IMG/VR virus record: IMGVR_UViG_3300026382_000001
Length of the DNA: 64,000 bases
DNA from: a virus
Lineage: Duplodnaviria; Heunggongvirae; Uroviricota; Caudoviricetes
Strand: one strand, 5' to 3'
In this document: one piece after another, positions 34,562 to 57,016 of the stretch
How positions within the stretch are numbered: the first letter of the stretch is position 1
Layout: each line of letters starts with the position of its first letter
Program-made: the position numbers and the translations under genes
The notes under the pieces: generated by a model
Seen by the model: the letters and a program-made list of their open reading frames with translations, nothing else
Databases searched by the model: none
Told to the model about the DNA's origin: nothing

Positions 34562-34576
34562 ATAATATCCTTTTAT

Positions 34577-36173: not shown

Positions 36174-36230
36174 ACAAATAATTTCCTTTCATTTATAATT
36201 TGATAAAGTAAAATATATTAATTTTTGGGT

Positions 36231-37079: not shown

Positions 37080-37969
37080 ATTTTTTTCCTAGTCGATAAT
37101 CGTTCATTTTTAAAACATCTATCATAATCATTTATATTATCAATAAATATATTATATTTTTCAGAAAATTTAAATTTATTAACAGAATAAAATTTTTTAA
37201 TATAATTATAATTTATAAAATTAGTTTCTATATTAACTTCCATTTTTTTAAATTTTTCTATTTTTGATTTGGGAACTGGTATCCAATCAGGTATTCCATC
37301 TTTAGATAAAACATTAAATATGTAATAATAATCATAATTATATTCTTTTAATATTTTTATTAATATTTCTAATTCTTTATCGGTATAGGTATTAACCATT
37401 AAAAGAAATACAAATTTACCAGGGTTGTTATCCAGTACTGGTTTTAATTCTTTTAATTTTTTAATATAGAAATCTAATGATAATTGTTCCAAATGAAAGG
37501 TAAAATCAATAACATAATTATTAAAATTTGTACTATTTAAAAAATTGAATAATGTATCCAATTTTGAAGCAGATGTACTAAAATTAGAAAATATTTTAAA
37601 TAGAATTTTTTGATTATTAAACATATGTAATTTAGCAGACATATAATTAATAATAATTTCAAATCTATTAATTTTTTCTAAATTATAAAAATATTCCCCA
37701 GATGAAATACTTATAAAAAAACCATCATTATCATATTTAGATTTAGAATACTCTAAAAAAACTTTATCTATTATCTTAAAAAGCTGTTCGTTTGTAAAAG
37801 TACCTTTATTATTTGGTACAGAAAGAAATTTATCAAAACAGTAACTACAATCTAAATTACAAGTTGTATCAAAAGCTAACAATAGTATTTTATAAAATCG
37901 TTTTCCTATTGGTAACGCCAATGTTGTTTTTTTTATAAGATCCTCTTTATTATCCAATATAAAACTCAT
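37076..37969 (-). CDS. divergent radical SAM protein (start revised to MSFILD)
   Basis: CNLDCSYC, SSGEYF, TFH; ATGA overlap with the upstream stop and an AAGGA SD. Confidence 0.8.
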   Translation of the reverse strand: MSFILDNKEDLIKKTTLALPIGKRFYKILLLAFDTTCNLDCSYCFDKFLSVPNNKGTFTNEQLFKIIDKVFLEYSKSKYDNDGFFISISSGEYFYNLEKINRFEIIINYMSAKLHMFNNQKILFKIFSNFSTSASKLDTLFNFLNSTNFNNYVIDFTFHLEQLSLDFYIKKLKELKPVLDNNPGKFVFLLMVNTYTDKELEILIKILKEYNYDYYYIFNVLSKDGIPDWIPVPKSKIEKFKKMEVNIETNFINYNYIKKFYSVNKFKFSEKYNIFIDNINDYDRCFKNERLSTRKKI

Positions 37970-38913
37970 AGCAATTCCTTTTTTATTTGAGTAAGATAAT
38001 AACATGGACATGTTATTTCACAATTAACTATAAACATATTTTTCATTTTTATAAGTAAATTATTAAAATTATCATGAATATTTCCAATTTTTGTACCAGT
38101 ACAACCTTGTAAAATATTTAAATTGTAATCAATTAAGAATTCTTTTAAGTAACATTTTTTCTTATTTTTTAATAATATGAAATTATTTATAGAAATTTCT
38201 TTATCATTCATAGTAACACTTGGATTTAATAATTGTATCAATTTACGAAATGGATTTGATTTGGATTTTGAATAGATTTTAGCTCTTTTTTTTAAGAAAT
38301 TTTCATTTCCATTATCTATAACTTCGATATTTATATCAATAACTTTTGATAATTTTTCGATAGTATTAAAATTATTATTATAAAATTCAATATATTCTTT
38401 TTTTAATGTAAGCATTAAATCCATTTTTAAATTAATTTTATAATTATTTATTAAATAATTTAAATTTTTAAAAAATATATTATCATTTAAATCAATTAAT
38501 TCATGTACACTCGCAGTAATAAAAATATTATCTAAAAAATTATTATTTTTACATATTTCAATACCTTTTAATAAATTTGAAATATTTATTAAATTCGTAA
38601 AAATATTCATATTTATTTTATTTTCGATACAAAAATTAACACAATCTAAAAAATATTTACTTAAAGTAGGTTCTCCACCTAATATAAGTAATTGAAGATT
38701 TGGAAATTCTTTTTTAATATGTAATAAAAATATTTTAATATTATTCCAATTTTCTTGAGATAAATTTTTATTCCAATCGTTAGTTTTGTTATAATAATTT
38801 TTCGAATAACAGTATGAACAATCTAAATTACATACTGTAGTTATATCCAAACTGATTAATATATCATATTGAAAAAATTTATCCATTTTTTTATTTGGTT
38901 TAATAATATTCAT
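37966..38913 (-). CDS. radical SAM protein (twitch-like C-terminus)
   Basis: CNLDCSYC, LGGEPT, FTN, SVH; CEITCPC. Confidence 0.9.
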   Translation of the reverse strand: MNIIKPNKKMDKFFQYDILISLDITTVCNLDCSYCYSKNYYNKTNDWNKNLSQENWNNIKIFLLHIKKEFPNLQLLILGGEPTLSKYFLDCVNFCIENKINMNIFTNLINISNLLKGIEICKNNNFLDNIFITASVHELIDLNDNIFFKNLNYLINNYKINLKMDLMLTLKKEYIEFYNNNFNTIEKLSKVIDINIEVIDNGNENFLKKRAKIYSKSKSNPFRKLIQLLNPSVTMNDKEISINNFILLKNKKKCYLKEFLIDYNLNILQGCTGTKIGNIHDNFNNLLIKMKNMFIVNCEITCPCYYLTQIKKELL

Positions 38914-39619
38914 ATTTTTCCTTTGTATCGAATAATATATTTAATGAACAAAAATCAATATGATTATCTTCAATAAATAATTTAGTATTTGGTTCTTTTA
39001 AAGTACTTGTTACACAGTAATCTTTTCGTGAGGCTCCTATATCAAAATTAATTAATCCCATTGAAAGAATATTGGAATTTAAAATTCTATTTAAAAATAT
39101 TTTTTTTAAATTTGGTAGAGTTTTTTGATAATAATTTGGATCTTCTATATCAGTACATAAATAAATTATAATATCCATATCAGAAAATAATTTAATAACC
39201 AAAGATATAATATTACTATTTTTAATATTAAAAATAATTTGAGTTCTTAATATATATTTTTTGTTAAATAATTCTAAATAATCATCTTTATTTTTTTTTA
39301 ATTTAAAAAATAATTGATTATGTAAACTAAGAACTATTTTTATATTATCAGTAAATAAATATTCATACTCTTTGATTTTTAATAATTTAGTACCATTTGT
39401 ATAAATAATAATATTTTGATTATATTGTTTTATATAATTTATAATTTTTTCAAATTCTGGATGCAAAAATGGTTCTCCACCAAGAATATTAATAACTTCA
39501 TAATCTTTAAAATTTATTTCATGTAATTCTTCTAAACTTATAAAAGAATTTTTTAAACTAACTGTACAATAATCGCACTCAAAATTACATTTTAATGTAA
39601 TAAATAAATCGAGATTCAT
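38900..39619 (-). CDS. radical SAM protein
   Basis: CNFECDYC, LGGEPFLHP, YTNG, SLH. Confidence 0.9.
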   Translation of the reverse strand: MNLDLFITLKCNFECDYCTVSLKNSFISLEELHEINFKDYEVINILGGEPFLHPEFEKIINYIKQYNQNIIIYTNGTKLLKIKEYEYLFTDNIKIVLSLHNQLFFKLKKNKDDYLELFNKKYILRTQIIFNIKNSNIISLVIKLFSDMDIIIYLCTDIEDPNYYQKTLPNLKKIFLNRILNSNILSMGLINFDIGASRKDYCVTSTLKEPNTKLFIEDNHIDFCSLNILFDTKEKYEYY

Positions 39620-40494
39620 TGTATCCCCTTTAATTTTAATATTATATCATTTTGTTTTATAAATTGATTATAATTATTTATGGATCGCCCCTCAAATTTA
39701 ATTATATTAAATCGTTTTATAAATATTATTTTATGTTTATCTGGTATAAAAGCTTCCGTAAATTTTTTTGGTACTTTTTCTAATATACATGGCATACAAC
39801 TACTTTCGAATTTTTTTCTATTCGCGACATAATTTAAATTATAATAACTAATTTTATCATAATGATTTTTATATTTATTACAATGATTACAACCTTTAAT
39901 AATATTGATAATTATTTCCGTTTGTTTTAAATAATTATTTTGTACTAAATAATTATAAAACCATTGTTTTATAATTAATTCACTATGTATTACAACATTA
40001 TCATATTTATTAAATAAATTTGTATAATACTTAAAAATCTTTTCTTTGGATATTTTATTATTTTTATAAAATTCTGGAAAGTTTTTATGAGCAGTAATAC
40101 TATAAACGAATGTAAACCATTGTTTACTTTCTGGATATTTTGTAATAATATAATCATATAATATATCGGAATTAATAATTATCTCATTTTTAATATTATA
40201 TTTAATAGACGATATTAATAAATTTTTTAATAATTCATTACCATTTTTATCATTTAAATGTTCCTTCGTCAATAAGGAATTCGTAAACGTTAATCCAATA
40301 CTAATACCAAACTTATTATAAGTATCTATATCCATTTCTGTTATTTGTATTTTTTCATCAAGTATTCTACCACCATTCCAAACACAATTGTTAAAACCAT
40401 TGTATAAAACAATATTATAATATTTTTTTAAAGTTATTAAATGGGTTAAAAATGTTCCATCTTTATAATAAGGTATTACTAATTTTTTCATCAT
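39616..40494 (-). CDS. peptidase U32-like Fe-S protein, paralog of 36231..37079
   Basis: CVWNGGR, IIN..GCNHC, CMPC, IKFEGR. Confidence 0.6.
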   Translation of the reverse strand: MMKKLVIPYYKDGTFLTHLITLKKYYNIVLYNGFNNCVWNGGRILDEKIQITEMDIDTYNKFGISIGLTFTNSLLTKEHLNDKNGNELLKNLLISSIKYNIKNEIIINSDILYDYIITKYPESKQWFTFVYSITAHKNFPEFYKNNKISKEKIFKYYTNLFNKYDNVVIHSELIIKQWFYNYLVQNNYLKQTEIIINIIKGCNHCNKYKNHYDKISYYNLNYVANRKKFESSCMPCILEKVPKKFTEAFIPDKHKIIFIKRFNIIKFEGRSINNYNQFIKQNDIILKLKGIQ

Positions 40495-41240
40495 GTTCCT
40501 TTATAAAACGTGTTGTAATTATATTCTTTATTAATAGCATCTCCTATTGGACATATATCTATATCGCAAGAATATTTTTTATTTAAATATTTATTTAAAT
40601 TTATAATTTTTATTTCTGTTTTTTCAATACCACATGCAACATATAATAAACCAGTGCTTAATAAAAAAATAAAAGCATTTGGTGTACAAACATTAGAGGT
40701 ATTAAATATATTTAATTGATGATCAATATAATTTGTTAAATTAGCAAGATTATTTTTTAAATATTTAAAAACTGATTGTTCATTATTTGATAAATCTTTT
40801 ATAGTAATACCTAACTTAATATCTAGTTTATTTAAGTTCTTATATAATTTTATAATTTTATTACTTCCTTCGTAAATATCGTTTTTTTCAAAAAATATGT
40901 CTATATATAAATATTCTTTATATATTGAATTATTTAATAAATTATTTAACTTAATTATATCATTAAAATTGTAATCTAATAATATGGAAACATTTACGAT
41001 ATTATACTCTTTCATGTTTAAATTATTTATTAATTTAAGTTGTTGTATATTAGTAACACTTAAAGTTATTTTTATATTATTAGATTTAAATACTTTTAAA
41101 ATATAATACAAATCATTTATATTAATATTATTTAATTCAATATCTAATACAATATTAGGAATATTTTTTATACCATTATAAAGTTTTTTTATATTGTCGA
41201 GTTTACCATCGGTAATAATGTTAATATATGTATACATCAT
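40491..41240 (-). CDS. degenerate radical SAM-like protein lacking CxxxCxxC
   Basis: keeps the paralog-type C-terminus CTPNAF...VAC...CDIDICP. Confidence 0.5.
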   Translation of the reverse strand: MMYTYINIITDGKLDNIKKLYNGIKNIPNIVLDIELNNININDLYYILKVFKSNNIKITLSVTNIQQLKLINNLNMKEYNIVNVSILLDYNFNDIIKLNNLLNNSIYKEYLYIDIFFEKNDIYEGSNKIIKLYKNLNKLDIKLGITIKDLSNNEQSVFKYLKNNLANLTNYIDHQLNIFNTSNVCTPNAFIFLLSTGLLYVACGIEKTEIKIINLNKYLNKKYSCDIDICPIGDAINKEYNYNTFYKGT

Positions 41241-42169
41241 TAATCTTTTTTAGTTAATAATAATGGGTAATCCAAACAGGAATCGCGTTGGCAAATAATT
41301 TTTTTACCAAAATATTTTAAAAATTTTACTGGGTTTTGTTTTATATTAAAATTATAATTTAAACAATCTGCGGTGAAGGTAAGGTTTTCATCTATATGTC
41401 CATAATTATAAGAACATGTTTTATTTTTATAACTTATATTATCTTTCATTACTTCATTCAATGTAATTTTTTTATTATTATAAAAAAATTCCGGAATATT
41501 TTGATTAAATACTTTTTCTGGTAATTTTAAATAAGATATCTTATTTAAAAAATCTAAGAAATTATTTGATTTAAATTCCTCATTTTTAAATATTATCTGA
41601 GGACTATATATTATATTATTACTAATACAAAAATAATATAGTTCTAAAATAATATTTTTAAAAAAGTATTCTGTTTTTTCAGTTAAATATAACATTGGTG
41701 AAATAATAATATTAAATTTTTTAGATACAATTAGTTCTAATTTATCAAATAAATTCTTTTTATGATTAATATTATTTAAGTATTCTGGATGTAAACTAAG
41801 CCAATGATTAACATTATTATAATTTGGGTGATTTTTATAAAATTCATATGATTGAAAAAAATTAGTACTTATAAATATATCTGAGTTAGGTTTATCTATA
41901 TCGGAAAATTTATCTAAAATATTAAAATATAATTCTTTATTTAATGTTGGTTCTCCGCCAAGCAATCCCAACGTAAAATCAAAAGGATGTTTTTTTAATA
42001 AATTTAATAATATCGTAGAATTTTTTAATAATATTTTATTATCATTTTTTATATTTAAACTATTATCAAATTTTTGAAAACAATATGTACAATTTATATT
42101 ACACATCATTTGTATATCATAATCTAAATATATTCTATTTTCTTGTGAGTATATAGAATTCCAATACAT
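41240..42169 (-). CDS. radical SAM protein (twitch-like C-terminus), closest to 32802..33752
   Basis: CNINCTYC, LGLLGGEPT, SLHPEY; CQRDSC. Confidence 0.9.
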   Translation of the reverse strand: MYWNSIYSQENRIYLDYDIQMMCNINCTYCFQKFDNSLNIKNDNKILLKNSTILLNLLKKHPFDFTLGLLGGEPTLNKELYFNILDKFSDIDKPNSDIFISTNFFQSYEFYKNHPNYNNVNHWLSLHPEYLNNINHKKNLFDKLELIVSKKFNIIISPMLYLTEKTEYFFKNIILELYYFCISNNIIYSPQIIFKNEEFKSNNFLDFLNKISYLKLPEKVFNQNIPEFFYNNKKITLNEVMKDNISYKNKTCSYNYGHIDENLTFTADCLNYNFNIKQNPVKFLKYFGKKIICQRDSCLDYPLLLTKKD

Positions 42170-42178
42170 ATATTTCCT

Positions 42179-43051
42179 TTATAATAAATATTTATTCACG
42201 TTTGTTTTATCCCCATCGTAACTAGTACAAAAATTTTCATCACATATTACTTTTTTATTTACTGGTATATCGTGATTTTTAATATTTAAATTCTGTTTTA
42301 AATTATAAGAACATGAAAATATTATATCACCATTAATATTAATATCAAAAACATTTGGAGTACAGTTAAATTGTTTTTTATTGTACTTAGCATTTACAGC
42401 ATAATTTTTAGATATATACTTAAACATTTTTTCTTCTGAGATACCGCAGGAAAATATATCAAATAATACATCATTTTTAAATATGGGTATAAATCTATAT
42501 TTTATATCATTTTCATTTAGGAAATCTAAAATTAATTCAATTTTTTCTTTATGTTCTTTGGTTAATACATCATCTATATAAAAATTAATAAACATTTGTA
42601 TATTTTCTTCATTATAAGTTTTTAGATTAAAAAATAAAGAATCGAAATTTTTTAAAAAATTAAAGGGATGTACACTAATATTTAACATAGATTTTTTAAA
42701 TTTTTTTAATAATTTTAAATCCTTATAAATTAATCCATTTGATGTAATTGAAAAAATATCAACTACTCCAAGAATATGTAAATCTAACATATCTTCTATT
42801 TTTTCATTAAGTAATTCTTGACTTAATGTTAGAGGTTCGCCACCCAAGAAATCTATATATAATTCCTTATTTGGATATTTTTTTTTAATCTTCTTTAATC
42901 TATGTTTAAAAAAAGTCCAAACGGATTTAGAAATTAACTTTACAGTATTTAAATAAGATACATAACAATATGGGCAATTTAAATTACAAGTCGTCGTTGG
43001 TTCTATAGATACATAAACTTGTTTATTTTGTATATTCGAGCAACTCATCAT
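42179..43051 (-). CDS. radical SAM protein (twitch-like C-terminus)
   Basis: CNLNCPYC, FLGGEP, TSNG, SVHP; CTPN...SC...CDENFC. Confidence 0.9.
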   Translation of the reverse strand: MMSCSNIQNKQVYVSIEPTTTCNLNCPYCYVSYLNTVKLISKSVWTFFKHRLKKIKKKYPNKELYIDFLGGEPLTLSQELLNEKIEDMLDLHILGVVDIFSITSNGLIYKDLKLLKKFKKSMLNISVHPFNFLKNFDSLFFNLKTYNEENIQMFINFYIDDVLTKEHKEKIELILDFLNENDIKYRFIPIFKNDVLFDIFSCGISEEKMFKYISKNYAVNAKYNKKQFNCTPNVFDININGDIIFSCSYNLKQNLNIKNHDIPVNKKVICDENFCTSYDGDKTNVNKYLL

Positions 43052-43895
43052 TTTCCTTTAATTCTATATTTTCAAAATTATTATTTATATCCCACCAACG
43101 CCAATATAAACCAGTATCTCCATAATCTGGTCCACAATATTCTTCGAAATTAAAATCAAACAATATTTTTTTATTATAAAATTTACATTCCGCGATAAAT
43201 CTTGGACTACAATCGAATTGAAATTTGGTTTTCGTATATAAAAAAGAATTAAATTTTTCAAAAATATTTTCAACTGGAGCAGTTAAAACAAAATCTCCAA
43301 AATTATGTTTAGTTCCAGATACGTAAAGAATATTTTCATTATCCGTAATATTATCCAATTTTCTAAGATTTGTATTAATATATATTAATGTTTTGTTTTG
43401 TACTGAATTTCTAATGGTTTTAAAATATTTAAAATTTATTTTTTTAACGTAATTTATACAATTATTAAAATTATCGTAATCTTTATATATTCTTTTATCT
43501 TGTAATAAATATACCTTATCATTTTTTAAAATTTTTGAATAATCTGTGATTTTATTACATCTTAATAAAATCAATTTTTCAAATAATAAAACATATTTAT
43601 CCCAGTAATAATCATATAAACCATCTGTAAATATTAAAATATCACCTTTTATAATTTTTCTTTTAAAATTAAAAATAATATCTTTTTTATAATCATTTGG
43701 TAATATGTACTTATCTTCCCAAGCTTTATAAAAAATATTTTTAGGTGAGTTTTCTTGTATTAAAATATTTACCGAATATCCCAATTCATGAAATAATAAA
43801 TAATAATCCATTACCTCAAAGGTATGACCACATATTCTATTTCTTTCAAATTGGCTTGGACAATAAGTAAGAACTATTTTTTTACCAAAATTCAT
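43023..43895 (-). CDS. putative GT-B fold glycosyltransferase-like protein
   Basis: N-terminal ICGHTFE; C-terminal FLY...DCSPRFIAECKFYNK resembles the GT-B (D/E)x7E motif. Confidence 0.4.
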   Translation of the reverse strand: MNFGKKIVLTYCPSQFERNRICGHTFEVMDYYLLFHELGYSVNILIQENSPKNIFYKAWEDKYILPNDYKKDIIFNFKRKIIKGDILIFTDGLYDYYWDKYVLLFEKLILLRCNKITDYSKILKNDKVYLLQDKRIYKDYDNFNNCINYVKKINFKYFKTIRNSVQNKTLIYINTNLRKLDNITDNENILYVSGTKHNFGDFVLTAPVENIFEKFNSFLYTKTKFQFDCSPRFIAECKFYNKKILFDFNFEEYCGPDYGDTGLYWRWWDINNNFENIELKENDELLEYTK

Positions 43896-43909
43896 TTTTT
43901 CCCTTTTAA

Positions 43910-44791
43910 TTATTTTTTTAAATTAATAAATCCAACTATATTTCTTAAGTCTGGAAAACATGGACATTCATTTAAAGTACATACTTTACTTTTTAAAATA
44001 CTTTTAAGACCTTTTTTAAAAAATATATCAAATGTAATACTAGTATTATTGCATTCATTTGTGATACCTTCTGGTCGTATACAAATATAATTCGCGTGGC
44101 AAAAAACTTTTTTAGGACTAATTTTATGTTTATTAAAATTAGTCCCATAAATAGATTCACTAATATTTTCAACCAAATCGGAATGAATTATATCAAACTG
44201 TATTTCGGGAATTAACGAAACAAGATAATTCTCATTATTTTTATTTATTTTAGAATAATTTTTATCTAGACTTTGTAAAAAATCGATATTGAATATATAA
44301 TTATTCTCTTTAAGGTACTGAAGCTTTATAGCAAAATTATCCAAACTTTTATTATTTCTTACAGCATTATTATGAATAGTAAATAAACTCCAAAATTCAT
44401 TAAAGTCTTGAAACTTTTTATAAAAGTATTCGTATTGTTTAATACTTCCAGTTAAATTAGATAAAAATTCTATTTTAACGCTTTCTTTTCTGTATGAAAA
44501 TACTTCAAATATATTATCTAAATACTTATAGTAATCTTTGGACTCGGTTAATTCCCCACCAAGTATAGATAACGAAATTATTTTAAAATTCTTTGTATCA
44601 GTATCTAATTTAATTAGGATATCTTTAAATTCATCTGGACTTAACTTAATCGAACTATTTAATTTAGAATATGTAAAACAATATTCACAACCAATACTAC
44701 AATTATAAAAAGGTATTAATTGAACATAAATACCCAAGTTATTATTAAATATTTTTGTATTTAATTCACTGGGTTTATTTTTAGATAACAT
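43910..44791 (-). CDS. radical SAM protein (twitch-like C-terminus)
   Basis: CSIGCEYC, LGGELT, LSNL, TIH; CTLNECPC. Confidence 0.88.
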   Translation of the reverse strand: MLSKNKPSELNTKIFNNNLGIYVQLIPFYNCSIGCEYCFTYSKLNSSIKLSPDEFKDILIKLDTDTKNFKIISLSILGGELTESKDYYKYLDNIFEVFSYRKESVKIEFLSNLTGSIKQYEYFYKKFQDFNEFWSLFTIHNNAVRNNKSLDNFAIKLQYLKENNYIFNIDFLQSLDKNYSKINKNNENYLVSLIPEIQFDIIHSDLVENISESIYGTNFNKHKISPKKVFCHANYICIRPEGITNECNNTSITFDIFFKKGLKSILKSKVCTLNECPCFPDLRNIVGFINLKK

Positions 44792-45636
44792 TAAAATTCC
44801 TTTAGAAAATTTGTAAAGTTAATAGATCTTTTAAATATATTATCTATATAATTGACCTTAGTTCTAAAATTATCTTCTGTTAAATCACTCCAACAATAAG
44901 TATTTAAATTATTTAATTTTTTGAATAATCTATCATATCCATAATAATTTAAAGCTTCTAACATAGCTTTATTATCGTTGGCAATAGCTAAATTATTCAT
45001 AAGTAATAATTTTTTTTTGTAATAAATACATTCTAATAATGTATTTGAAACTGAATCATTATCTTCGTTATTTATTAAATAAGTTTCAAAATTATTAAAA
45101 AAATAATCTTGATCGGTACAAGAATCAAAACCTTCTATATTACCACCAAATACTAGAACATCTCGTTCGGAAATATCGTTATTTTTTAAATAGTTTAAAA
45201 GTACTTTTTTATCTTGGCATTCAGCCCGATTATATATACCATACTTATACTGTTTTGATTGATAGTTAACTATTGATAGTTTACTATCAATAGTTAACTC
45301 GTAAAAATAAGTTGGATAGAATTTCATATTATAATATTTACTGTAATAAAAACCATTTGAAAATATTTTATTATTATTTTTTAAAAATAAATATTTAGTC
45401 TTCTCGAAAAATATATTATCTTTTATTAATTCATGTTTAGATTTAGAATATGTAAATAAAAGATTTTTAAATATTTTAGCATCTGGTTGTCTATAAAAAT
45501 TAATATTGGGCGTTCTTTTGGATGGAGAAATATTCATAATGAATTGGTTATTATAGTTCCGTAAAATTTTGGCAGGAATAGTATTCGAACCTCTTTTACG
45601 AGATCCGAATCTATTTTCTTGAATTAAGTTAATCAT
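44791..45636 (-). CDS. putative GT-B fold glycosyltransferase-like protein containing a palindromic repeat
   Basis: YGIYNR; DSVSNTLLECIYYKK resembles GT4 E.FSNxLLEA. Confidence 0.4.
   Translation of the reverse strand: MINLIQENRFGSRKRGSNTIPAKILRNYNNQFIMNISPSKRTPNINFYRQPDAKIFKNLLFTYSKSKHELIKDNIFFEKTKYLFLKNNNKIFSNGFYYSKYYNMKFYPTYFYELTIDSKLSIVNYQSKQYKYGIYNRAECQDKKVLLNYLKNNDISERDVLVFGGNIEGFDSCTDQDYFFNNFETYLINNEDNDSVSNTLLECIYYKKKLLLMNNLAIANDNKAMLEALNYYGYDRLFKKLNNLNTYCWSDLTEDNFRTKVNYIDNIFKRSINFTNFLKEF
45262..45299. repeat. intragenic copy of the AATAGTTAACTATT family (hairpin with 17-bp arms)
   Basis: AGTTAACTATTGATAGT-TT-ACTATCAATAGTTAACT at 45264-45299. Confidence 0.8.
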
Positions 45637-45653: not shown

Positions 45654-46268
45654 TTATAGAATTTTAGTAGGAATTATTTTTTCAGCTAATACCTCTAATT
45701 CTTCTTCATCAGCATAATCAATATCTTCTTTAGTTTGTATTAATTCGTTATTTAATTCTAAAAATGGTTTGAGTTCATCCTGTATACTTAAATACAATTC
45801 TAATTTTTCGATAGCGCTTTCGTCGTCTAATTCTAAAATTTCAATATATTTATCTTCTTTATTATCTTCAGTAATAAAAATTCCTTTAGCTGCAAAATAA
45901 TTAAATAAAGTAATATAATGAATATATGTTAAAAAGCTAATTTTTTGAATATTTAAGGCCAAATTATTATCCATATAATTATATAATTCTACTTTTTTTA
46001 ATTCTAGTTCTTCTGCTTCTAAAGTAGTGCCTTCGGGTAAATCTTCTTTAAGATATATAAAACTATCTTTAGTAATACTTTTTTTAAAAATATCTTCTTC
46101 TTTAATATATACTTTTCCATATTCATTAACCAAGGCATTGTACATATATTTTGTTGCATCGTCAATCATAGCATAATTTTCGAATAATTCTAAATCTTGA
46201 CCAGAGAATTGCATAATTTCAGAAATTACAAAATTTCCATTTATTTTATTTAGTAAAGCTACTTGCAT
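45654..46268 (-). CDS. acidic hypothetical protein next to the Cys-rich protein
   Basis: 204-aa ORF with SD; KGIFITEDNKEDKYIEIL segment. Confidence 0.6.
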   Translation of the reverse strand: MQVALLNKINGNFVISEIMQFSGQDLELFENYAMIDDATKYMYNALVNEYGKVYIKEEDIFKKSITKDSFIYLKEDLPEGTTLEAEELELKKVELYNYMDNNLALNIQKISFLTYIHYITLFNYFAAKGIFITEDNKEDKYIEILELDDESAIEKLELYLSIQDELKPFLELNNELIQTKEDIDYADEEELEVLAEKIIPTKIL

Positions 46269-46285: not shown

Positions 46286-46864
46286 TTAATAATTTGCATT
46301 ACAGTTACATGTACATACTGTATTACATTTACATACACTTGGACAAGAGTTATGGTCATTTTGATTACATAATCTAGCAACTGCTTTTAATTTATTTTTT
46401 AATGTTGTCATACTTGCATTATCTATTAAATTACCGCGGGATCTATATGTTACGGAACCAGTTGTTGCAACAACATTATCTGCCCACCATTTCATAGTAT
46501 TATAATGATCATGGTCTACTAATTTACCCGGAGCAACTAAAGATGATATTGCCTCGATATCAGAAATGTTTCTTTCGCTAGCAATACTATGAATAATATC
46601 ATACATATCTTTAAAATGTTTATCATCTATTAATTCATTGTTTGGTGAAGTATGTCCAAATACTGTTTCCAAAGCACTTGCATAATTAGAACTACAAGTA
46701 TCTCTATACGAAGGACATGTACTAGCAACATCAGTATTAGAATTAGGAGGATTATTAGACGAGGTATTTCCATCTCCTCCGGTAGTATAAACTCTGGTAC
46801 CAGATGACCAAACTGTCGTATTAAATCGACAATTAATATTAGTTGTTTTGGTAGTACGAGACAC
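46286..46864 (-). CDS. Ser/Thr/Asn-rich protein with a 7-Cys C-terminal tail; candidate radical SAM substrate and virion fibre component
   Basis: ends CNQNDHNSCPSVCKCNTVCTCNCNANY; three L(I/V)D repeats; strong AAGGAG SD. Confidence 0.65.
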   Translation of the reverse strand: MSRTTKTTNINCRFNTTVWSSGTRVYTTGGDGNTSSNNPPNSNTDVASTCPSYRDTCSSNYASALETVFGHTSPNNELIDDKHFKDMYDIIHSIASERNISDIEAISSLVAPGKLVDHDHYNTMKWWADNVVATTGSVTYRSRGNLIDNASMTTLKNKLKAVARLCNQNDHNSCPSVCKCNTVCTCNCNANY

Positions 46865-46875
46865 ATTTTCTCCTT

Positions 46876-48723
46876 TTATTTATTATTTATAATTTTATCA
46901 AATATGTATAAATATTTACTAATTTGATTGTTAATTTCACATGATAATGTTAAACCATGAGAGTACATATCTTTATAAAGATCATTAGTAGTACTAGTGT
47001 CTAAAGATCTATCTGGGGTTATATTTACCATTGGGCATTTAACACATGTAAGTGTTTTACATCCATCGCAATATGAATATTCTTTATCCGAATTAATAAC
47101 CTTTTCCAATTTTTCTTTTGTTTTAAAGAATTTTTGTTGAAAAGTATCTGAAGTTATATCACCGTATTTTAAACTATTTAATTGTTCTTTTTTATATGGA
47201 AATTTAACATTTGTATGTTCTTCTCCAAATTCAGTTCTATGACAATATCTTCCAATACCATCCTGATCAAGACCAAATAATTTACTTCCCGCAGAACATG
47301 TGGTATTATTAGCAGCATAACTCATTTCTCTAAACCATCTGGTAAAAGCTGGTTTGTTATTTATTAATCTATCCATTTCAAATTTTAATAAATATTTAAA
47401 AGTCTCGTCTAATTCGGTAAATAGTTTTTCTTTTGGTTTTGTATTTCCACACTTTTCCTGTTGTCTTAAATTATACATTAATATAGAGGTAGTATCGAAA
47501 GTTGGATAATAAGAAAAGTTATTTGGATTATTATTTTTTTTATTTATATCTTCTTCAAATGTTACATAATCCTGCACTGCGTCTGGAACACTACTAATAG
47601 CCTCCAATGGTAAAGTCGCTTTTAAGGATACCTTAATTCCATTATCTTCATTAAGTAAAGCTCTAATTTCTTTAGTAAGAGATTCTTTAGTTCCATTTTT
47701 TTTAGAATCTTTTCTATAATCATCTTGGATTCTTCCACCATCATAAGATATTTGAACTTTAATCTTATCTCTTGGAAAATCTGGATGGAAGAAACCAATA
47801 GTTCTTTTAGCAGAATAATTATTAGTAATTAAAATAATATATTTTAAATCTAATTCATCTTCTAATAATTTAGTTAATTTGTGAGTTACTTCCTGTGGTA
47901 CTAAAGTTGGTTCTCCACCAAGAATACTAAAAGACATTTTAGAAACAAGTCCTTTTTCTTCTAAAGTTCTGGCAAAATTTTTTATACCTTTGACAATATC
48001 TTCTACATCATCTATCGATAATATTTCGGTAACTTTATCAAGACCTTCATAACAATAAGTACATTTAAAATTACAATTTTTATTTATTTGAAATACTATA
48101 TGAAATGAATCTTCGTCATCATGATTTGTAGGATCTGGAGTATCGTCGTGAAAATAATGTTCTTTTTTTAAGATAATATCTTTTTCATTTAATTTTTTTT
48201 CATCTAGTGTTTTTCTATAGTAATTATTTAAATCGTTATATAAATTTTTTAAATTAATATCATTTTCTATTAATTCTTCGTAATGTCTAGCATATTCCAA
48301 TCTGTTGTGAGCTTCTTGATAAGTTTCCTGATATTTATATTGAATTATAGTAGTACTCAATTCTTTTACAAATTCGCCAATATCATTTATAAAATTACTA
48401 AAATCGTTTCCAGTAACTTCGGAAATATATTTTAAAAGAATTATCATTTCAAATAAATCATCATTTATTAATTTTAAAATTTTAATAGTTTGTTCATTAC
48501 GTTCTGGAGTTTCTTCAAAGTCTTCTAAGGTATCTAATAAAATATCCTTAGTTTTAATATCCGATTGACCTAAAATATTAAAGATATCTAATAAAATATT
48601 TAAATTATCCTCGTTAAATATAAAGGAAATTTCCTTTATATTTAACAATGAATTATTTATTAATTCATTTATTCTCGGTATAGCCTCTTCTGGATTAATA
48701 CTCATTTCTTCAAACTTTTCCAT
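46876..48723 (-). CDS. radical SAM/SPASM protein with a ~200-aa N-terminal extension
   Basis: CNFKCTYC, LGGEPT, ISYDG; CSAG...YCH...CDGCKTLTCVKCP...SC. Confidence 0.9.
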   Translation of the reverse strand: MEKFEEMSINPEEAIPRINELINNSLLNIKEISFIFNEDNLNILLDIFNILGQSDIKTKDILLDTLEDFEETPERNEQTIKILKLINDDLFEMIILLKYISEVTGNDFSNFINDIGEFVKELSTTIIQYKYQETYQEAHNRLEYARHYEELIENDINLKNLYNDLNNYYRKTLDEKKLNEKDIILKKEHYFHDDTPDPTNHDDEDSFHIVFQINKNCNFKCTYCYEGLDKVTEILSIDDVEDIVKGIKNFARTLEEKGLVSKMSFSILGGEPTLVPQEVTHKLTKLLEDELDLKYIILITNNYSAKRTIGFFHPDFPRDKIKVQISYDGGRIQDDYRKDSKKNGTKESLTKEIRALLNEDNGIKVSLKATLPLEAISSVPDAVQDYVTFEEDINKKNNNPNNFSYYPTFDTTSILMYNLRQQEKCGNTKPKEKLFTELDETFKYLLKFEMDRLINNKPAFTRWFREMSYAANNTTCSAGSKLFGLDQDGIGRYCHRTEFGEEHTNVKFPYKKEQLNSLKYGDITSDTFQQKFFKTKEKLEKVINSDKEYSYCDGCKTLTCVKCPMVNITPDRSLDTSTTNDLYKDMYSHGLTLSCEINNQISKYLYIFDKIINNK

Positions 48724-48761: not shown

Positions 48762-50798
48762 CTATTTAACTTTACATAGAATTTTAAAATTTTCTAAAGA
48801 ACTTGGGTCGCTATTTTCCAATGCTACTCCAATTAAATCAATGGTATTTTTATAAGTGTATGTTCCTTCAGCAACGTTCGGATTATTATGACTAGGATAT
48901 AAATACATTCCTTTTTTAATAAGTCCTTCGCATTTAACAGGTACTCTACCATTTAAAGCAATATTAACATATTCTTGATTATTTTCGAAAGTGCTATTAA
49001 GTACAAAACCTGGATTAGTCGTTACAATACCACAGTATATATTACCTTTAGCATTCTCAGTAACTTCAAAATCTTCATTATCTTTAGATCTATTAAAATA
49101 TAAAATAGTCCCCGATTCATACATATAATCTTCATGATTTTCTTTTTTATAGTACTCGGCTAAATCGGCATACTTAGCCGTAGTAGCAGTACCTGTAAAA
49201 GTTCCAGCGTCTACTGTAACACCGCTTGCATTATCGAATGTTAGTGTATCTCCATCCCAATACATATTTCCATCATCGGTACTACAAGTAATTCTATTAG
49301 AGTGATGTAAATCTATTTCGGTATTACTATAACTAAGTACATCATTACCATTATATTGTAAAGTATTGGCATAAAATTTCCAAGCACCATCATCTCCCCA
49401 ATCTTCAAGATTAAAAGATTCTACAAATTGTAAACGATTATCCAAATATTTTATATTATCATCAGCATTGAAAACTCTAGCTTTCGCTTCGGCTGCTATA
49501 TTTCCAATTAATGCTAACTGAGCATACAAATCATTTACTCCAACCGCTAATTCATTATCTTTTAAAGTAAATGGTGAAATAATATTTGAATTGATTAAAG
49601 ATCGGAACTTAACAAACATTTCGTTAATTGTATCAGTATAATTTTCAAATCTTCTTTCTATTTGTAAATCTGTTCTAAGCATTAGATATTCACTGAAACC
49701 TTGACTAGATATTTTCTCAGCTTTATCGTACCAATCCACTGTTTTTAGATCTTGAAACATACTTGCTTTATTTTCTAAATCCGAATTAGTCTCTGATTTT
49801 AAAAAATCAGTTATGGTTCCATAGATTACGTCGTACATATCGTATAATGATTTAACAATAACTTTTATTTTATCATCAGTGTATTCGAATACTTGTTTGC
49901 TTTCATCAATACTTTCTTGTAATAAAGCGGTTAATTTATTTATTTGAGTTCTATTTAAATTTAACTGACTACCAATTACAGATACCTTTCTTTTAAGATT
50001 AGAAATATCAAAAGAATATTCATTAATAGTATCGTCATATTTAGTTAATATTTCCGAAATTTTAGTAGCTAATAGTTCGGCTTGAATTTCTAAATTATTT
50101 TTAGTAGGTAAGTTTTGATATTGATCACCTTCTACAAATTTAGCAAAAATACTAAACACAGTACTTTTTTTATTAGTGGCATCTATTAAATTTAAAATTA
50201 TTTCAACTTTATAAACTCTTCTATTTTCTATTAATTCTATATCATCTGGATCTAAAGAATCAAAATCAAAATTAGAATATAAGTTAATACCATTATTATT
50301 TAATCTAATTGTAATATTATCCATACCAGTACTTGGGATAGGATCAATATCGAAATAAGAAGCATTTGTACCAACTATAGTACAAAAGGTATTGTATACT
50401 AAATCTATTTTAGCAGTAAGCATATTTGGATAAAGATTATGTGTATACATATTATGTTCAAAATGATTTAAAACGTAAGGCGCATTGTCGATAATACGCT
50501 GTACTTTAATACTAATATTTTGTGATATGCTGGCATCAGTTTCCATATCAGTTGCTATAATAGTAAAATTAAGTTGTTGAATTTCTTTATTTATATCTTC
50601 TGGATAATCCGTATTAATAGCGTCTTTACCATCACCCGTTAAATAAACTTTATTTTCTTGAACAGAAAAATATTGATTATAACTAGATTCTAGCGAATAA
50701 GAAACCGAATTAACGTCAGTTTCCACTTCAGTTATTAACTGCCCATCTACTAAGTTTTCTTCTATTATATCATAAATTTTTATTTCCGTAAATTCCAT
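48762..50798 (-). CDS. tail fibre/receptor-binding protein with C-terminal intramolecular chaperone domain
   Basis: Ig/cadherin-like N-terminus, coiled coil, TATTAKYADLAEYY...GIVTTNPG..LN...IALNGRVPVK...IGVALE. Confidence 0.75.
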   Translation of the reverse strand: MEFTEIKIYDIIEENLVDGQLITEVETDVNSVSYSLESSYNQYFSVQENKVYLTGDGKDAINTDYPEDINKEIQQLNFTIIATDMETDASISQNISIKVQRIIDNAPYVLNHFEHNMYTHNLYPNMLTAKIDLVYNTFCTIVGTNASYFDIDPIPSTGMDNITIRLNNNGINLYSNFDFDSLDPDDIELIENRRVYKVEIILNLIDATNKKSTVFSIFAKFVEGDQYQNLPTKNNLEIQAELLATKISEILTKYDDTINEYSFDISNLKRKVSVIGSQLNLNRTQINKLTALLQESIDESKQVFEYTDDKIKVIVKSLYDMYDVIYGTITDFLKSETNSDLENKASMFQDLKTVDWYDKAEKISSQGFSEYLMLRTDLQIERRFENYTDTINEMFVKFRSLINSNIISPFTLKDNELAVGVNDLYAQLALIGNIAAEAKARVFNADDNIKYLDNRLQFVESFNLEDWGDDGAWKFYANTLQYNGNDVLSYSNTEIDLHHSNRITCSTDDGNMYWDGDTLTFDNASGVTVDAGTFTGTATTAKYADLAEYYKKENHEDYMYESGTILYFNRSKDNEDFEVTENAKGNIYCGIVTTNPGFVLNSTFENNQEYVNIALNGRVPVKCEGLIKKGMYLYPSHNNPNVAEGTYTYKNTIDLIGVALENSDPSSLENFKILCKVK

Positions 50799-51096: not shown

Positions 51097-54012
51097 TTAT
51101 TCAGAAAAAGTATTTAAATTTTGAAAACAATCTAAATTTGGATCAGCTAAACCATGATCATTAAATTCATAATCTGTTATAAGTACTGGATCATTAATAC
51201 CAAACTCTTCTCTTAATTTATTATATTCTATTACCATACCTTCTAACTCTGCAGTAAGGTTATTCAATACGCTTACAAAAGCATTTAGGTTAGTTTCAGT
51301 TCTATCTATTAACGATCTATCTGGTATAGTTTGACTTTTTAATTGCAATAAAATATCATTAATAATTTGAACATCGTTATTTACTGCAATTAACATTTTT
51401 TGTTTTAATCTAATACGAATAGTTAAATAAGTATAATTATAAATTTTTCGTTCATAATCACTAATATATAATATTGTGTTAACACTTTGTTGATGTGATA
51501 TTCTATCAATAATTTGTTGATCCATATTAACTATATCATTCTCTAATTTAATAACTAAAGATAATTCGGAAGATATTCTATTGTTTAAATCTTCTATTTC
51601 TAAATCGATATCTACTATAGTTAAAATAATTTCACTAAATTCTCTAAGACTTTCTTGATAAGTACTAAATGTATTATATTTCGTATTTATATAATTTCTT
51701 CTTTCTGTATCATAAACGTCTAAAGTATTTTCTATAGTTACTTTAGCTGTCTCATCTTCGGAATTAGTACCAGATAAAGTTTTTAAATAATTATTTACAT
51801 CTGTTAATTCTTGTATTAAATATCTAGTTATATAATACGGGGAATGTGTGTCGGTTTCCATCTGACGTGAGTATTCATCAAATGGAATATTATCATTATC
51901 ATTATCTATAAAATAATGAATTTTTTCTAAATAATGAGCGATGCCATATGCTCCAGCAGATATTTCTGTAAATTTTGGATCACCAAATAAATAATTACTT
52001 AATTGATTTAAATAAAATACTACTGATGTACCATTATTATTATCTATATCCATTAAATTATCTATATCCGTTGTATTAAATGTGTTTAAAGCGTTTATAA
52101 TTGCTGGAATAGTACTTTGTATATTTGTAACAACATTGCTTAAATTTTTCAAAGTATTAATTAATATTCGATTATTATTTCTAAATTGTTCCATTGGGTT
52201 ATTAGTACTACTGATAACCTCATCAGTTGCATTATAAGTAGTAACTGGTCCAACCAAAGTACCACGCTGAGTTTCACCAACTGGATTTCTAGAAGTTAAT
52301 GAATATTTAGTAGTATTTATATTTATATTAACTATTGAAACATTAGAACCACTTGGGGCATCCATATCGGTTTTTACCTTAGGTGCTGAAACCTGTATTA
52401 TCGAAGTAGTAAGACGATTAATACTCGGCAATGCCAATGAACTAAAATCTCGAAAACCATTAAAAGAACTACTAAATGTTTGAATAGTATATTCTAATTC
52501 AAAAAATAAATTATCTTGATTTTTAGTACTAAAATTATCTTTTAAATCATTTAAATAGGTAATAAATTGATTTAAGTTAGCTAAGTACTGAGTTAAATAA
52601 GTTTCAAAATCTGGTAAATATTTAATTAGGTAATCAATCTTGGCAAATTTAAATTGATTTTCCGATTGGTATTTATTCATAATTGCATTTTGATCAATTA
52701 AAGTGTTTTCCAAAGTAGAAATACTTATAGGACCAGTTACATTATTAATTGTTACCACCGGAGTACTAGTTAAAGTAGTATTATTATAAATAGTTAAATT
52801 ATCTTGATATTCATTTTCTTTAATATTGCTATCAGTAACTAATTGATCTTTTTGATTAGCTAATTCTTCTTTAAGTATTTGCAATTCTCGAATAAATAAA
52901 TTTCTAAAATCTTTGGATTCTTTACTATTCCAATAAGCATAAATAATATTAAAACGATCCTGAAATTGTTGAGGAAGACCAATAAGTTCTAAAAAATTAG
53001 CAGTATTCATATCATCAGCATACTGAAAATTAACCATCATTTTTTTATTATCCAAAGCGTACCCAACCATTACATTACCTGGAGTAAATCTAGAACTTAT
53101 TTTTCCAGGTACTGGCTGTTGTCCATCTTCCCAAGCGTAATTAGTTTCAGAACAGTTATCTAAAAGATAATAACTTTTTCCTGGTTCCATATTTAATAAT
53201 ATTTTATTACTATCATCTATTTTTATATTAAGATTAAAATCAATAATACCATTCGTAACTATAGTATGTGCGCCAGATTTTGGATTATAAACATAAATTC
53301 CCATAGCTTTATCTATTTTTCTATTACATGCTCTTGCTGGTTTATATAATCCGTCTAAATCCAAGAAAATAACATCCCCAGATTTTGTACTATATTCCGG
53401 ATTAGTACTATTTTTATATAATTTATTTGCTGATATAGTAATACCTTGATAAGAGTTAATTTTAAATAAATCAACTGCTTTATCAGAAACTAACTGAAAT
53501 AATCTAGTGTAGTTATCAATAAACATATCATCAAGATTCTGTGGATATGTTATTAAATCGTAACCATCCATTTTAAATTGAATAATCTTAAGCATGGTTG
53601 CCGGATTATAAGAACTAACTGCCACATAATCAAAAATAGCAGGATTATACAAACATTGGTTGCTATACTGATAATAAATTACTAAATAATAATCGACATT
53701 ATTAACTAATTTTGAAATTGGAACGTTAAATATAATATCATCCGTAAATGCTATAAATTGATCATCTACGAAACAAGAACCTTTATTAATATAAAATTCT
53801 AAATTATTTTCATTATTTAAAATAGTTTTTCGTACTGTTGTTTCTAGTCCACTAATATATGAAGATATGGTTACTGTTGGATCGACTGGTTTAAAAGAGT
53901 TAAATACTTTTGAAGTAAGTCTTAAATAATCATTTGGAGCTCTATCACTTGCTTCTAAACCAAGTATCTCTGCATTTTTATAATCATCTAGACCATTGAT
54001 TGTAATACTCAT
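51097..54012 (-). CDS. large virion structural protein (fibre/baseplate-associated) with long coiled coil
   Basis: VIFLD..G.Y.PA...AMGI...NGII...PGKSYYL...PGKIS...VGYAL beta module; heptad-rich C-terminal half. Confidence 0.55.
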   Translation of the reverse strand: MSITINGLDDYKNAEILGLEASDRAPNDYLRLTSKVFNSFKPVDPTVTISSYISGLETTVRKTILNNENNLEFYINKGSCFVDDQFIAFTDDIIFNVPISKLVNNVDYYLVIYYQYSNQCLYNPAIFDYVAVSSYNPATMLKIIQFKMDGYDLITYPQNLDDMFIDNYTRLFQLVSDKAVDLFKINSYQGITISANKLYKNSTNPEYSTKSGDVIFLDLDGLYKPARACNRKIDKAMGIYVYNPKSGAHTIVTNGIIDFNLNIKIDDSNKILLNMEPGKSYYLLDNCSETNYAWEDGQQPVPGKISSRFTPGNVMVGYALDNKKMMVNFQYADDMNTANFLELIGLPQQFQDRFNIIYAYWNSKESKDFRNLFIRELQILKEELANQKDQLVTDSNIKENEYQDNLTIYNNTTLTSTPVVTINNVTGPISISTLENTLIDQNAIMNKYQSENQFKFAKIDYLIKYLPDFETYLTQYLANLNQFITYLNDLKDNFSTKNQDNLFFELEYTIQTFSSSFNGFRDFSSLALPSINRLTTSIIQVSAPKVKTDMDAPSGSNVSIVNININTTKYSLTSRNPVGETQRGTLVGPVTTYNATDEVISSTNNPMEQFRNNNRILINTLKNLSNVVTNIQSTIPAIINALNTFNTTDIDNLMDIDNNNGTSVVFYLNQLSNYLFGDPKFTEISAGAYGIAHYLEKIHYFIDNDNDNIPFDEYSRQMETDTHSPYYITRYLIQELTDVNNYLKTLSGTNSEDETAKVTIENTLDVYDTERRNYINTKYNTFSTYQESLREFSEIILTIVDIDLEIEDLNNRISSELSLVIKLENDIVNMDQQIIDRISHQQSVNTILYISDYERKIYNYTYLTIRIRLKQKMLIAVNNDVQIINDILLQLKSQTIPDRSLIDRTETNLNAFVSVLNNLTAELEGMVIEYNKLREEFGINDPVLITDYEFNDHGLADPNLDCFQNLNTFSE

Positions 54013-54769: not shown

Positions 54770-57016
54770 TTATTGAACTTGCTCTGGAGGCTGAGCTAAG
54801 TTTTGCATAATCTGTTCTTTAATCTGTTCTTTAATCTCTGTTTCTCCACCACGTTTTAATTTATCCCACGGTAGGTTAGGAGCATAAAGTTTAAATAATT
54901 CTTCTGGATCTACCTTCATTCCTGCTTGAGAAAGAGTTCCAACTAGATTACCAATACTACTAATAACTGCTTCGCTATTTTGCAATTGTAAAATAACCGG
55001 AGCATTTAAAGTAAATTTCATGTATTGTGTAATATTAAAAGATTTATAATCTTTATTATTAGCTTTAAGTACTTTTTGAAAGACTGTATTAATTAAATCG
55101 TTTAATGCATCTTCAATATAACCTTGATAAGTAGTAATACTATTGGCGAAAGTAATATTAAGATTTACTAAAGTTTCTCTTTGTTCTATATTTTCTCCAA
55201 TATTTAAAAATACTGATGGAATACCTGTAGCTGCAATAAGTTCATTTCTAAGATCACCTAAATCATTAATAGGCAATGCTCTATCATGCATAGGCATAAC
55301 TTCCATATCAATAAATTTTTGACCATTCTTAGATACTGTAGCAATATCACGGAAGTCAGTCATAATTTGAGAAATATTTTTCATTGAACCTAAATCATCG
55401 TATGAAATATTTTTAGTTTTAAGTTCTTTTTGAACATTTTGAACTATTTGTGAATGGTTTCTTCGTTTACCAACTTCAATATTCCATTTACGAACAACAG
55501 AAGCTCTACTTAATCTAGATATAACCGAACTTAAAAGAGCGATCGTATATAGTTTAACTGGAAGAACTATTGGATCAAATACGCTAGTTGCATAAGGAGC
55601 AAACTTATCAATATTTGTATGAAAGTTAATTAAATTATTTGCTTCTACCAATCTAAATTTTAGTTTAGATCTTTTCTTAATTTTTTCATAAAGAATAACT
55701 TTAAGACTAAATGATAATTCTTCTGGTAAATCCTCTATAAAGTTATTAGAAATTGCTAAATGTTCTTTTAATTTAAAAATAATTTCTTTACTAAATTTAT
55801 CTATTACTTCATCTGTAGTTTTCTTATTAGTAAGAGATTCTTTATTACTAGTGTTATCGTCATCATTAGCAAATCTTTTATAAAGGTTTACTTCGTCTGC
55901 TTCGGCACCTTTATTTAACTCTTCAATTACTAAATAACCAAAGTTAATCCCATCTTGTTCTAATTTAATAACAGATGTAGGTTGAATAAATTTTAAATAA
56001 ATATTTTTAATAATATCGAAATCTAAATCTTTTATATTATTAATATCGAATAAATCTGATTGAAAACCACTTTGTTCTAATTCTCCAATTTGATCCATAT
56101 AAACATCATTAAATAAATTAATATCATTCTCTTGGATACTTTCTTTAGATTTTAAAATATTTATAAATTGTTCGGAAGGAGCTTCTGTATAATTTTCCTG
56201 AATTTCTTCTTTTTGAATTATCGGAAGTTCTAGATATCCCAAATTACAATTAGCAGTAACATTTTTATCTTCCCCATAAAAAGTAATATTTTCAGTAATC
56301 AATTCTGATCTAGTTTCGGCGATTTTAGAAATACCTGAAAGATCAATTACCTCCATATAAAAGTCGCCGTATTTGAGAGTATTATGGATAATACTATTTT
56401 TTAATTTATTTTGAATATCAAAATAAACTAAAAATGTTTTCATAAAATTTGAAATATTCTTTTTAACATTTTCATCTAATTTAATCATCAATTCATTATG
56501 ATCATTTTCAATAATATTTATAAATTGTTTATTTTGAATATTTTTAATAAGAATATTATCAATGTAAACTCTAAGCATTCTATAAGCGATTGGATTGATT
56601 TCTGATATTTCATTGTAAAGATCGTAAATTTGTTTTCTATTATTACTAATATTACCATTGTTAAATATTTTTAAAATATCATCTGAGTTAGTATTTAGTA
56701 AATCATCTAAATCTTTATTTTCTTCATCTTTCTCAGCTTTATCCGATTTAATACTACTCATTCCTGTAAGAACTGGATTAATATTATTTATTTCTATTCG
56801 CTGAACATTAGAACTAAATAGTTGCATATCAGAACTACCATTAACAACTTCAGAATATATTTTATCAAATTCGTTTGTTATTTGATCTAAATTATCTAAA
56901 TCATCCAGAACGTTTATTGCATTCTGTTCTGGAGTTTGTTGAGACTGTTCCTGATTCATTTGGTTAGGATCTTGACTTGGATCAGGTATTCCCCAATCAT
57001 TGTATTCATTTGCCAT
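54770..57016 (-). CDS. portal protein (T4 gp20-like)
   Basis: LKYGDFY, SVFDP, SRLSRA..VRKWNIEVG, DL..LRNELIAATGIPSVFL. Confidence 0.72.
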   Translation of the reverse strand: MANEYNDWGIPDPSQDPNQMNQEQSQQTPEQNAINVLDDLDNLDQITNEFDKIYSEVVNGSSDMQLFSSNVQRIEINNINPVLTGMSSIKSDKAEKDEENKDLDDLLNTNSDDILKIFNNGNISNNRKQIYDLYNEISEINPIAYRMLRVYIDNILIKNIQNKQFINIIENDHNELMIKLDENVKKNISNFMKTFLVYFDIQNKLKNSIIHNTLKYGDFYMEVIDLSGISKIAETRSELITENITFYGEDKNVTANCNLGYLELPIIQKEEIQENYTEAPSEQFINILKSKESIQENDINLFNDVYMDQIGELEQSGFQSDLFDINNIKDLDFDIIKNIYLKFIQPTSVIKLEQDGINFGYLVIEELNKGAEADEVNLYKRFANDDDNTSNKESLTNKKTTDEVIDKFSKEIIFKLKEHLAISNNFIEDLPEELSFSLKVILYEKIKKRSKLKFRLVEANNLINFHTNIDKFAPYATSVFDPIVLPVKLYTIALLSSVISRLSRASVVRKWNIEVGKRRNHSQIVQNVQKELKTKNISYDDLGSMKNISQIMTDFRDIATVSKNGQKFIDMEVMPMHDRALPINDLGDLRNELIAATGIPSVFLNIGENIEQRETLVNLNITFANSITTYQGYIEDALNDLINTVFQKVLKANNKDYKSFNITQYMKFTLNAPVILQLQNSEAVISSIGNLVGTLSQAGMKVDPEELFKLYAPNLPWDKLKRGGETEIKEQIKEQIMQNLAQPPEQVQ

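Follow-up and report, generated by a model that had tools for sequence, protein, structure and literature searches.

A phage-encoded radical SAM/SPASM enzyme and its predicted substrate

A 615-aa radical SAM/SPASM enzyme of a tailed phage is predicted to modify the adjacent 192-aa protein after translation, cross-linking Cys(i) to Asx/Glx(i+3) through thioethers; the substrate would be a virion component associated with the fibre. We assign this reading a probability of about 0.6, based on sequence patterns and on analogy with characterized enzymes. Both genes are located on the minus strand of the window (the whole 64,000-nt stretch of DNA analysed here) and are separated by 11 nt, with the enzyme at 46876..48723 and the Cys-tailed protein at 46286..46864. 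The window lies within a 167-kb contig (26% GC), which also carries phage head and virion genes and shares proteins with a 281-kb contig. A search of sequencing runs found near-identical DNA in hydrothermal-vent metagenomes (three DNA runs, two of which may be its source), with no RNA dataset among the listed matches.

The 615-aa protein, a predicted maturase, was characterized using Pfam, NCBIfam, a predicted model (pTM 0.80) and an alignment of 18 homologues. It matches the Pfam family Radical_SAM (E 4e-6) and shows the traits of the radical SAM/SPASM superfamily, including a GGE motif, a partial TIM barrel and the SAM-cluster motif CxxxCxxC (C217, C221 and C224; 48052..48075, minus strand), which is invariant in the 18 homologues. 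Seven later Cys residues (476, 494, 552, 555, 560, 563 and 595) form a SPASM domain of the pattern C-x17-C ... Cx2Cx4Cx2C ... C (46939..47298, minus strand). These seven Cys do not vary among the 18 homologues, and their variant spacing is common to CPT_0184 of Campylobacter phage CP220 and 16 other phage enzymes; the Pfam SPASM family itself was matched weakly (E 0.024), in one homologue. No eighth conserved Cys is present, which suggests that auxiliary cluster I has an open Fe site. The N-terminal extension of about 200 aa (48124..48723, minus strand) is variable and poorly conserved in sequence among the 18 homologues, and other phage orthologues do not have it, with merely 11-31 residues ahead of the CxxxCxxC motif. 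DSSP analysis of the model assigned residues 1-200 entirely to helix, and the RRE fold (three strands plus helices) was not seen in the predicted model. In structure searches, the closest solved folds were anSME, CteB and ChlB, and the closest viral fold was that of a Campylobacter phage enzyme. Prediction of a complex between the enzyme and the 192-aa protein gave a score of 0.00, which we read neither way.

The 192-aa protein, the predicted substrate, has a GTG start codon with an AAGGAG site ahead of it. An ATG two bases upstream opens a 78-aa frame, which was rejected because the GTG frame is conserved in the homologues. The C-terminal tail (46286..46369, minus strand) is built of C-x-C-[N/D/E]-x-V hexads and contains seven Cys residues (C166, C174, C178, C180, C184, C186 and C188), followed by four residues ending in Tyr. 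In 22 homologues (21-81% identity), none of the seven tail Cys varies, nor do the N-terminal C12 and C57 or the Tyr at the end; the third N-terminal Cys, C50, is present in 20 of them. Since this invariance is accompanied by synonymous changes in the Cys codons, the Cys pattern is not due to chance.

The body of the protein contains three G-x-x-I-(D)-helix repeats forming one compact domain (46370..46642, minus strand), as judged from the repeat alignment and the predicted model, with helices at residues 81-98, 118-130 and 149-163. In the monomer model (mean pLDDT 57) this beta-alpha/helical domain is flanked by two disordered ends. In shape, the model is similar to a Uroviricota cluster that carries no name (TM 0.76 when scaled by target, 0.44 by query); the PDB gave only common helical arrangements, none of them a clear match (best Z 7.4), and other structure-search matches were unnamed phage proteins with E above 0.1. 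Searches against Pfam, PHROGs, NCBIfam, PDB sequences and Atlas features named no family for the protein, and no relevant NCBIfam model matched its family. No relative was found in a scan of bacterial and archaeal genomes, and tblastn of both proteins against isolated phages gave no match.

An earlier note on this DNA, made from the sequence alone, had described the two adjacent ORFs and the seven-Cys spacing within the last 27 residues exactly. It had also singled out the only full SPASM enzyme, and in a motif scan the seven-Cys pattern was complete in only this one of the 12 radical SAM ORFs listed on the 167-kb contig. Its three L(I/V)D motifs proved to be real internal repeats (hhalign, 94% for repeats 1 and 3, 90% for 2 and 3, and 58% for 1 and 2). 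The note took them to suggest a fibre; in the monomer model they form one compact domain, not a fibre shaft.

Conserved Asx/Glx residues three positions after Cys

Among the 22 homologues, the residue at +3 is Asn, Asp or Glu in 22/22 at C12, C57, C178 and C184; the share is 91% for C188 and 73% for C186, compared to a background of 23%. At the two N-terminal motifs, C12-x-x-N15 (46820..46831, minus strand) and C57-x-x-N60 (46685..46696, minus strand), +3 is always Asn or Asp, and both are predicted thioether sites. In the tail, the predicted links are C178-N181 and C184-N187, and probably also C186-N189 and C188-N191. At +4, Asp, Asn or Glu occurs in only 0-9% of the homologues at C12, C57, C178 and C184, unlike the CX3D/E motif of PapB (PMC9413430). 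The earlier note has to be revised in view of this pattern. It had placed the staples at the tip of the protein and had overlooked the three N-terminal Cys, but the same rule is obeyed at C12 and C57. Nor do all seven tail Cys fit the rule: C174 and C180, like C50, never have Asn, Asp or Glu at +3 (at C166 these residues are mostly absent).

An additional site appears to be switched on and off within the family. Thirteen homologues have Cys at position 172, each with Asp, Asn or Glu at 175; the other nine (including the protein of the window) have a different residue at 172 and always Pro or Ala at 175 (13/0/0/9; Fisher p 2e-6, 22 homologues). Among the ten top-scoring columns, this was the sole disjoint partition. 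In a tree from which the tail residues were left out, the traits at 172 and 175 each changed at least six times; no more than two of the independent contrast pairs are on strongly supported branches, and a sign test would need more. The co-change is suggestive, not formally significant. A covalent i to i+3 link would be expected to lead to such paired gains and losses of a donor and its acceptor.

Related proteins in Campylobacter phages

For two genes of the module, the closest homologues in cultured phages come from Campylobacter phages (Firehammerviruses). CPT_0184 of CP220, which was reached through the homologue P0022 and a fold search, is an orthologue of the 615-aa enzyme (hhalign 98.6%) with the Cx2Cx4Cx2C spacing kept. 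Neither of its direct neighbours is Cys-rich, and the adjacent CPT_0183 is no candidate substrate. A profile search of the 192-aa family against CP220 missed CPT_0180, but a Cys-density scan identified it four genes upstream of CPT_0184. This 534-aa protein contains 35 Cys and resembles the 192-aa family in the final repeat of the body, the one that runs into the Cys region (hhalign 81-85%, about 30 columns). In 11/11 Firehammervirus genomes found, its gene lies 3-6 kb from that of the enzyme orthologue, whereas the homologue of the 204-aa protein encoded downstream of the Cys-tailed protein (CPT_0015) is located elsewhere. These phages (CP220, CPt10, CP21 and IBB_35) have an orthologous enzyme, the same +3 rule and the same partner family, but differ in their dispersed genes, the 534-aa 35-Cys predicted substrate and an enzyme without the 200-aa extension.

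The Firehammervirus proteins provided an out-of-sample test of the +3 rule, from which the Cys of the heptad repeat were left out. All 15 of the 15 Cys outside this repeat in CPT_0180 and IBB_35 gene 3-9 have Asp, Asn or Gln at +3 (p about 2e-9). Together with the rule in the 22 homologues and the co-change at 172/175, this result favours the thioether chemistry predicted earlier. The product of IBB_35 gene 3-9 (60,318 Da), a distant relative of the 192-aa protein (29 aligned columns, hhalign 81%), is on the mass spectrometry list of purified virions with 2.6% coverage (PMC3322345, Table S2). The CP220 genome paper mentions an excess of radical SAM genes and also the 21-bp coding repeat of CPT_0180, but draws no connection between the two (PMC2853527).

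Orthologues of CPT_0180 in CP21 (HE815464.1, 74991-76592) and WX1 (OP654737.1, 20183-21742) are labelled as N-acetylneuraminate pyruvate lyase, which looks like a mis-annotation. Outside the window, a 137-aa CheY-like response regulator (G000:C1:55664-56077) resembles Campylobacterota CheY by eye, giving a hint of the host group.

Comparison with characterized thioether maturases

CrpC from Methanococcus voltae (TIGR04463), a seven-Cys SPASM enzyme, introduces thioethers into the full-size C-X-X-Q/D protein CrpA; ranthionine links were reported, and motifs without Asx were linked too (PMC13692751). This pair is the closest tested precedent, sharing with the phage system a seven-Cys SPASM enzyme, an adjacent Cys-rich full-size protein and a Cys-first motif, which is C-x-x-[N/D/E] in the phage protein. 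In contrast to CrpC, which has an RRE, the phage enzyme has the helical extension, and TIGR04463, its top NCBIfam match, gives only 42.1 bits against a cut-off of 525. CrpA is an archaeal cell protein with C-X-X-Q/D motifs, whereas here the predicted substrate belongs to a phage fibre module and the predicted acceptor is mostly Asn.

The enzyme NxxcB, from a streptococcal RaS-RiPP system, links the Cys sulfur to the beta-carbon of Asn via a Cys bound to an auxiliary cluster, and tolerates Asp and Gln (PMC9389541). The Asn acceptor and the three-residue spacing (implied there by the family name) are similar, but in NxxcA the Asn precedes the Cys, the substrate is a short peptide and no sequence relationship is shown. 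PapB (freyrasin), CteB (SCIFF) and QhpD (QhpC) are also SPASM thioether maturases, which join Cys to side-chain carbons of Asp or Glu. CteB is among the best fold matches of the 615-aa enzyme, and QhpC is a protein subunit. The phage system differs from these three in the CX2[N/D/E] substrate motif, in having no RRE-leader pair and in the Cx2Cx4Cx2C spacing, and its scores with the PapB and QhpD models are 40.6 (cut-off 340) and 38.5 (cut-off 453), respectively. In the CXXX-repeat system, a radical SAM/SPASM enzyme is encoded beside a Cys-repeat protein and a partner without known function. Here the repeats are hexads rather than Cys at every fourth residue, and the score with TIGR04115 is 22 against 350. 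Finally, anSME enzymes have eight Cys, which fully ligate the auxiliary clusters, and a sulfatase target, unlike the phage enzyme with only seven conserved Cys after the barrel and its neighbour without a CxPxR motif, and TIGR03942 (anSME) was matched by just 5/18 members of the enzyme family. The enzyme scores far under all NCBIfam family cut-offs, and its scores, the lack of an RRE and the substrate motif place the system outside every one of the named families; by analogy, we infer that it works like CrpC, QhpD or NxxcB.

The same enzyme might act on the same substrate with another chemistry or register, such as sactionine formation, links to Asx at +1 or to Val or Tyr, epimerization or anSME-like oxidation of Cys. 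We regard this as unlikely. The fold search with anSME as the best solved match and the cyclophane synthase ChlB scoring close would agree with it, as would the CrpC links outside Asx motifs, the invariant terminal Tyr and an aromatic residue which nearly always follows soon after C50 in the homologue alignment. In the C-x-C-N units the Asx is also at +1 to the second Cys, but the register is set at +3 by the lone Cys residues (C12, C57 and the lone ones in CPT_0180). Moreover, the interchange of Asn, Asp, Glu and Gln fits side-chain acceptors, and the number of SPASM Cys is seven, not eight.

Gene neighbourhood and the wider Cys-heptad family

In 11/11 related loci showing both genes, a homologue of the 192-aa protein is encoded directly after the enzyme, with a gap of -11 to +16 nt. 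A Cys-free 204-aa protein (phrog_25260; 45654..46268, minus strand) comes next after the Cys protein in every family locus and is the third fixed member of the module. Directly upstream of the enzyme is a gene for a 678-aa tail-fibre/spike-like protein (48762..50798, minus strand). Its C-terminus has a Peptidase_G2 chaperone-like match (E 1e-3, under Pfam's cut-off), which is typical of fibres and spikes, and its weak shape neighbours in the Atlas are phage fibre-type clusters (TM about 0.3). For most of the conserved Cys in this neighbour, the +3 rule does not hold. Synteny extends over the whole block (748, 220, 971, 90 and 678 aa, enzyme, Cys protein and 204 aa), so the adjacency is partly plain inheritance and alone no proof of a functional pair.

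Several other genes of the region deserve mention. The 748-aa protein (54770-57016), always encoded five genes upstream of the enzyme, is similar by eye to T4-type portals and had no PHROG or relevant Pfam match. The 971-aa protein (51097-54012) contains a CxxD motif (C80) conserved in 7/9 loci and a partly conserved CxxN (C120), which may be due to chance or indicate a minor target. Genes for a 281-aa (44791-45636) and a 290-aa protein (43023-43895, phrog_24441) have homologues in 9/12 related loci searched and are possible further module members. In one related locus (L019:1720-4299), the fibre gene call is split in two, with an extra 161-aa ORF between it and the radical SAM gene.

Scanning for pairs of tandem heptads gave 42 loci in viruses, which together encode 30 distinct Cys proteins. 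An enzyme of the 615-aa type was present in the fetched DNA for 18 of these proteins, and a homologue of the 204-aa partner was found beside 21. Most of the other twelve loci without the enzyme are short or end near the Cys gene, and the fetched DNA of one (L076) contained only a 308-aa radical SAM. In many of the loci (L042-L083), there are genes for a second SPASM enzyme, in which the Cys spacing is longer, and for a third radical SAM (about 300 aa), whereas the contig of the window has one SPASM enzyme; two loci (L054 and L061) contain three or four Cys-tailed paralogues in tandem. The Cx2Cx4Cx2C enzyme was the best profile match in 22/22 Cys-heptad loci holding one, and it adjoins Cys tails in unrelated phages with differing gene orders.

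This distribution is relevant to the possibility that the Cys residues bind Zn or Fe or form disulfides unaided, with the enzyme acting on another target. Metal binding is common for Cys-dense tails, and the +3 preference might reflect an Asx turn (or turn cap) or a mixed Cys/O metal site with Asx as a ligand. Pro or Ala at residue 175 also fits a turn, C50, C174, C180 and mostly C166 have no +3 acceptor, and the enzyme could have been merely inherited along with the syntenic block. However, inheritance of one block does not fit the association of this enzyme with Cys tails in unrelated phages, nor the link in CP220, where enzyme and Cys protein have stayed together beyond the dispersal of the module. 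We consider such unaided binding slightly less probable than a different chemistry on the same substrate. The pairing of enzyme and substrate suggested by the earlier note is supported by the 11/11 adjacent loci and by the orthologues in Firehammerviruses.

In 16 of the 30 Cys-heptad proteins, the S74 start motif follows immediately after the Cys tail, and Pfam S74 was above the cut-off in 8/9 proteins scanned. S74 domains fold trimeric fibres and spikes and then cut themselves off. The 192-aa protein has no S74 chaperone domain, and self-cleavage in the relatives would produce a mature end at the Tyr, the residue where the 192-aa protein stops. The S74 domains and the virion protein of IBB_35 are in line with the structural, fibre-associated role that had been proposed.

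Downstream of the module, nine short radical SAM genes, whose products have no more than a few Cys at the C-terminus, are interleaved with other tailoring-like genes (32802-44791), and one further radical SAM gene is located at 28997-30043 (plus strand). This array also contains two paralogues with a common short Cys/Trp/Gly-Gly-Arg motif (36231-37079 and 39616-40494), for which no NCBIfam match was found. Nothing connects these enzymes to the Cys tail, which the earlier note had considered as their possible acceptor, and the one small radical SAM compared showed only 25-31% identity to those of other loci. A RiPP-like precursor or non-virion factor, with a tail modified (perhaps further by the ten small radical SAMs) and then cut off or used intracellularly, would suit the Cys-rich C-terminal core, the disordered ends and the large downstream tailoring cluster of the same orientation, but is improbable given the folded body flanked by predicted sites at both ends, the S74 fibre chaperone directly after the tail in relatives, the relative detected in virions and the gene content of the cluster, which differs from locus to locus.

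Proposed mechanism and implications

In the thioether mechanism that we propose on the model of NxxcB, PapB and CrpC, auxiliary cluster I would bind a substrate Cys at its open Fe. The 5'-deoxyadenosyl radical would take a beta-hydrogen from the Asn or Asp three residues downstream (or a gamma-hydrogen from Glu), and the C-S bond would then be formed with a loss of 2 Da per link. Four staples are predicted firmly (C12-N15, C57-N60, C178-N181 and C184-N187) and two or three more are likely (C186-N189, C188-N191 and perhaps C166-N169), while C50, C174 and C180 would remain for disulfides, metal or another link. The staples could stiffen the otherwise disordered ends of the 192-aa protein, and as thioethers they would survive in the reducing cytoplasm as well as in the sulfidic water of vents, two settings in which disulfides would neither form nor last. 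The 204-aa protein is probably a chaperone or adaptor.

To our knowledge, radical thioether cross-links occur in peptides and very few proteins (QhpC and CrpA), and none on a virus particle was described in the literature searched. The same literature, with subscription journals mostly outside it, contained no phage radical SAM modification of a Cys-tailed protein. The new elements of the present system are the +3 register with its natural paired switch, the N-terminal sites, the connection to a published virion detection, the fixed third gene and the single-SPASM version. We see an even chance that, in phages from hydrothermal vents, fresh water and chicken gut, a dedicated radical SAM/SPASM enzyme places several Cys-to-Asn/Asp(+3) thioether staples in a virion protein associated with the tail fibre, so that radical cross-linking would belong to particle assembly. 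On this reading, the locus in the window would be a minimal version of the system, having a single SPASM enzyme beside the substrate and a cross-link site that is toggled in nature.

The named residue pairs and the cultured phages (CP220, CPt10 and IBB_35) make the proposal directly testable. If it is true, at least one unexplained radical SAM gene of Campylobacter and other large phages would have a role, and an enzyme without an RRE would staple CxxN motifs in folded proteins. A protein of the virus particle would then be cross-linked by chemistry known from peptide antibiotics, and virion maturation would depend on the Fe-S supply of the host and on the oxygen level.
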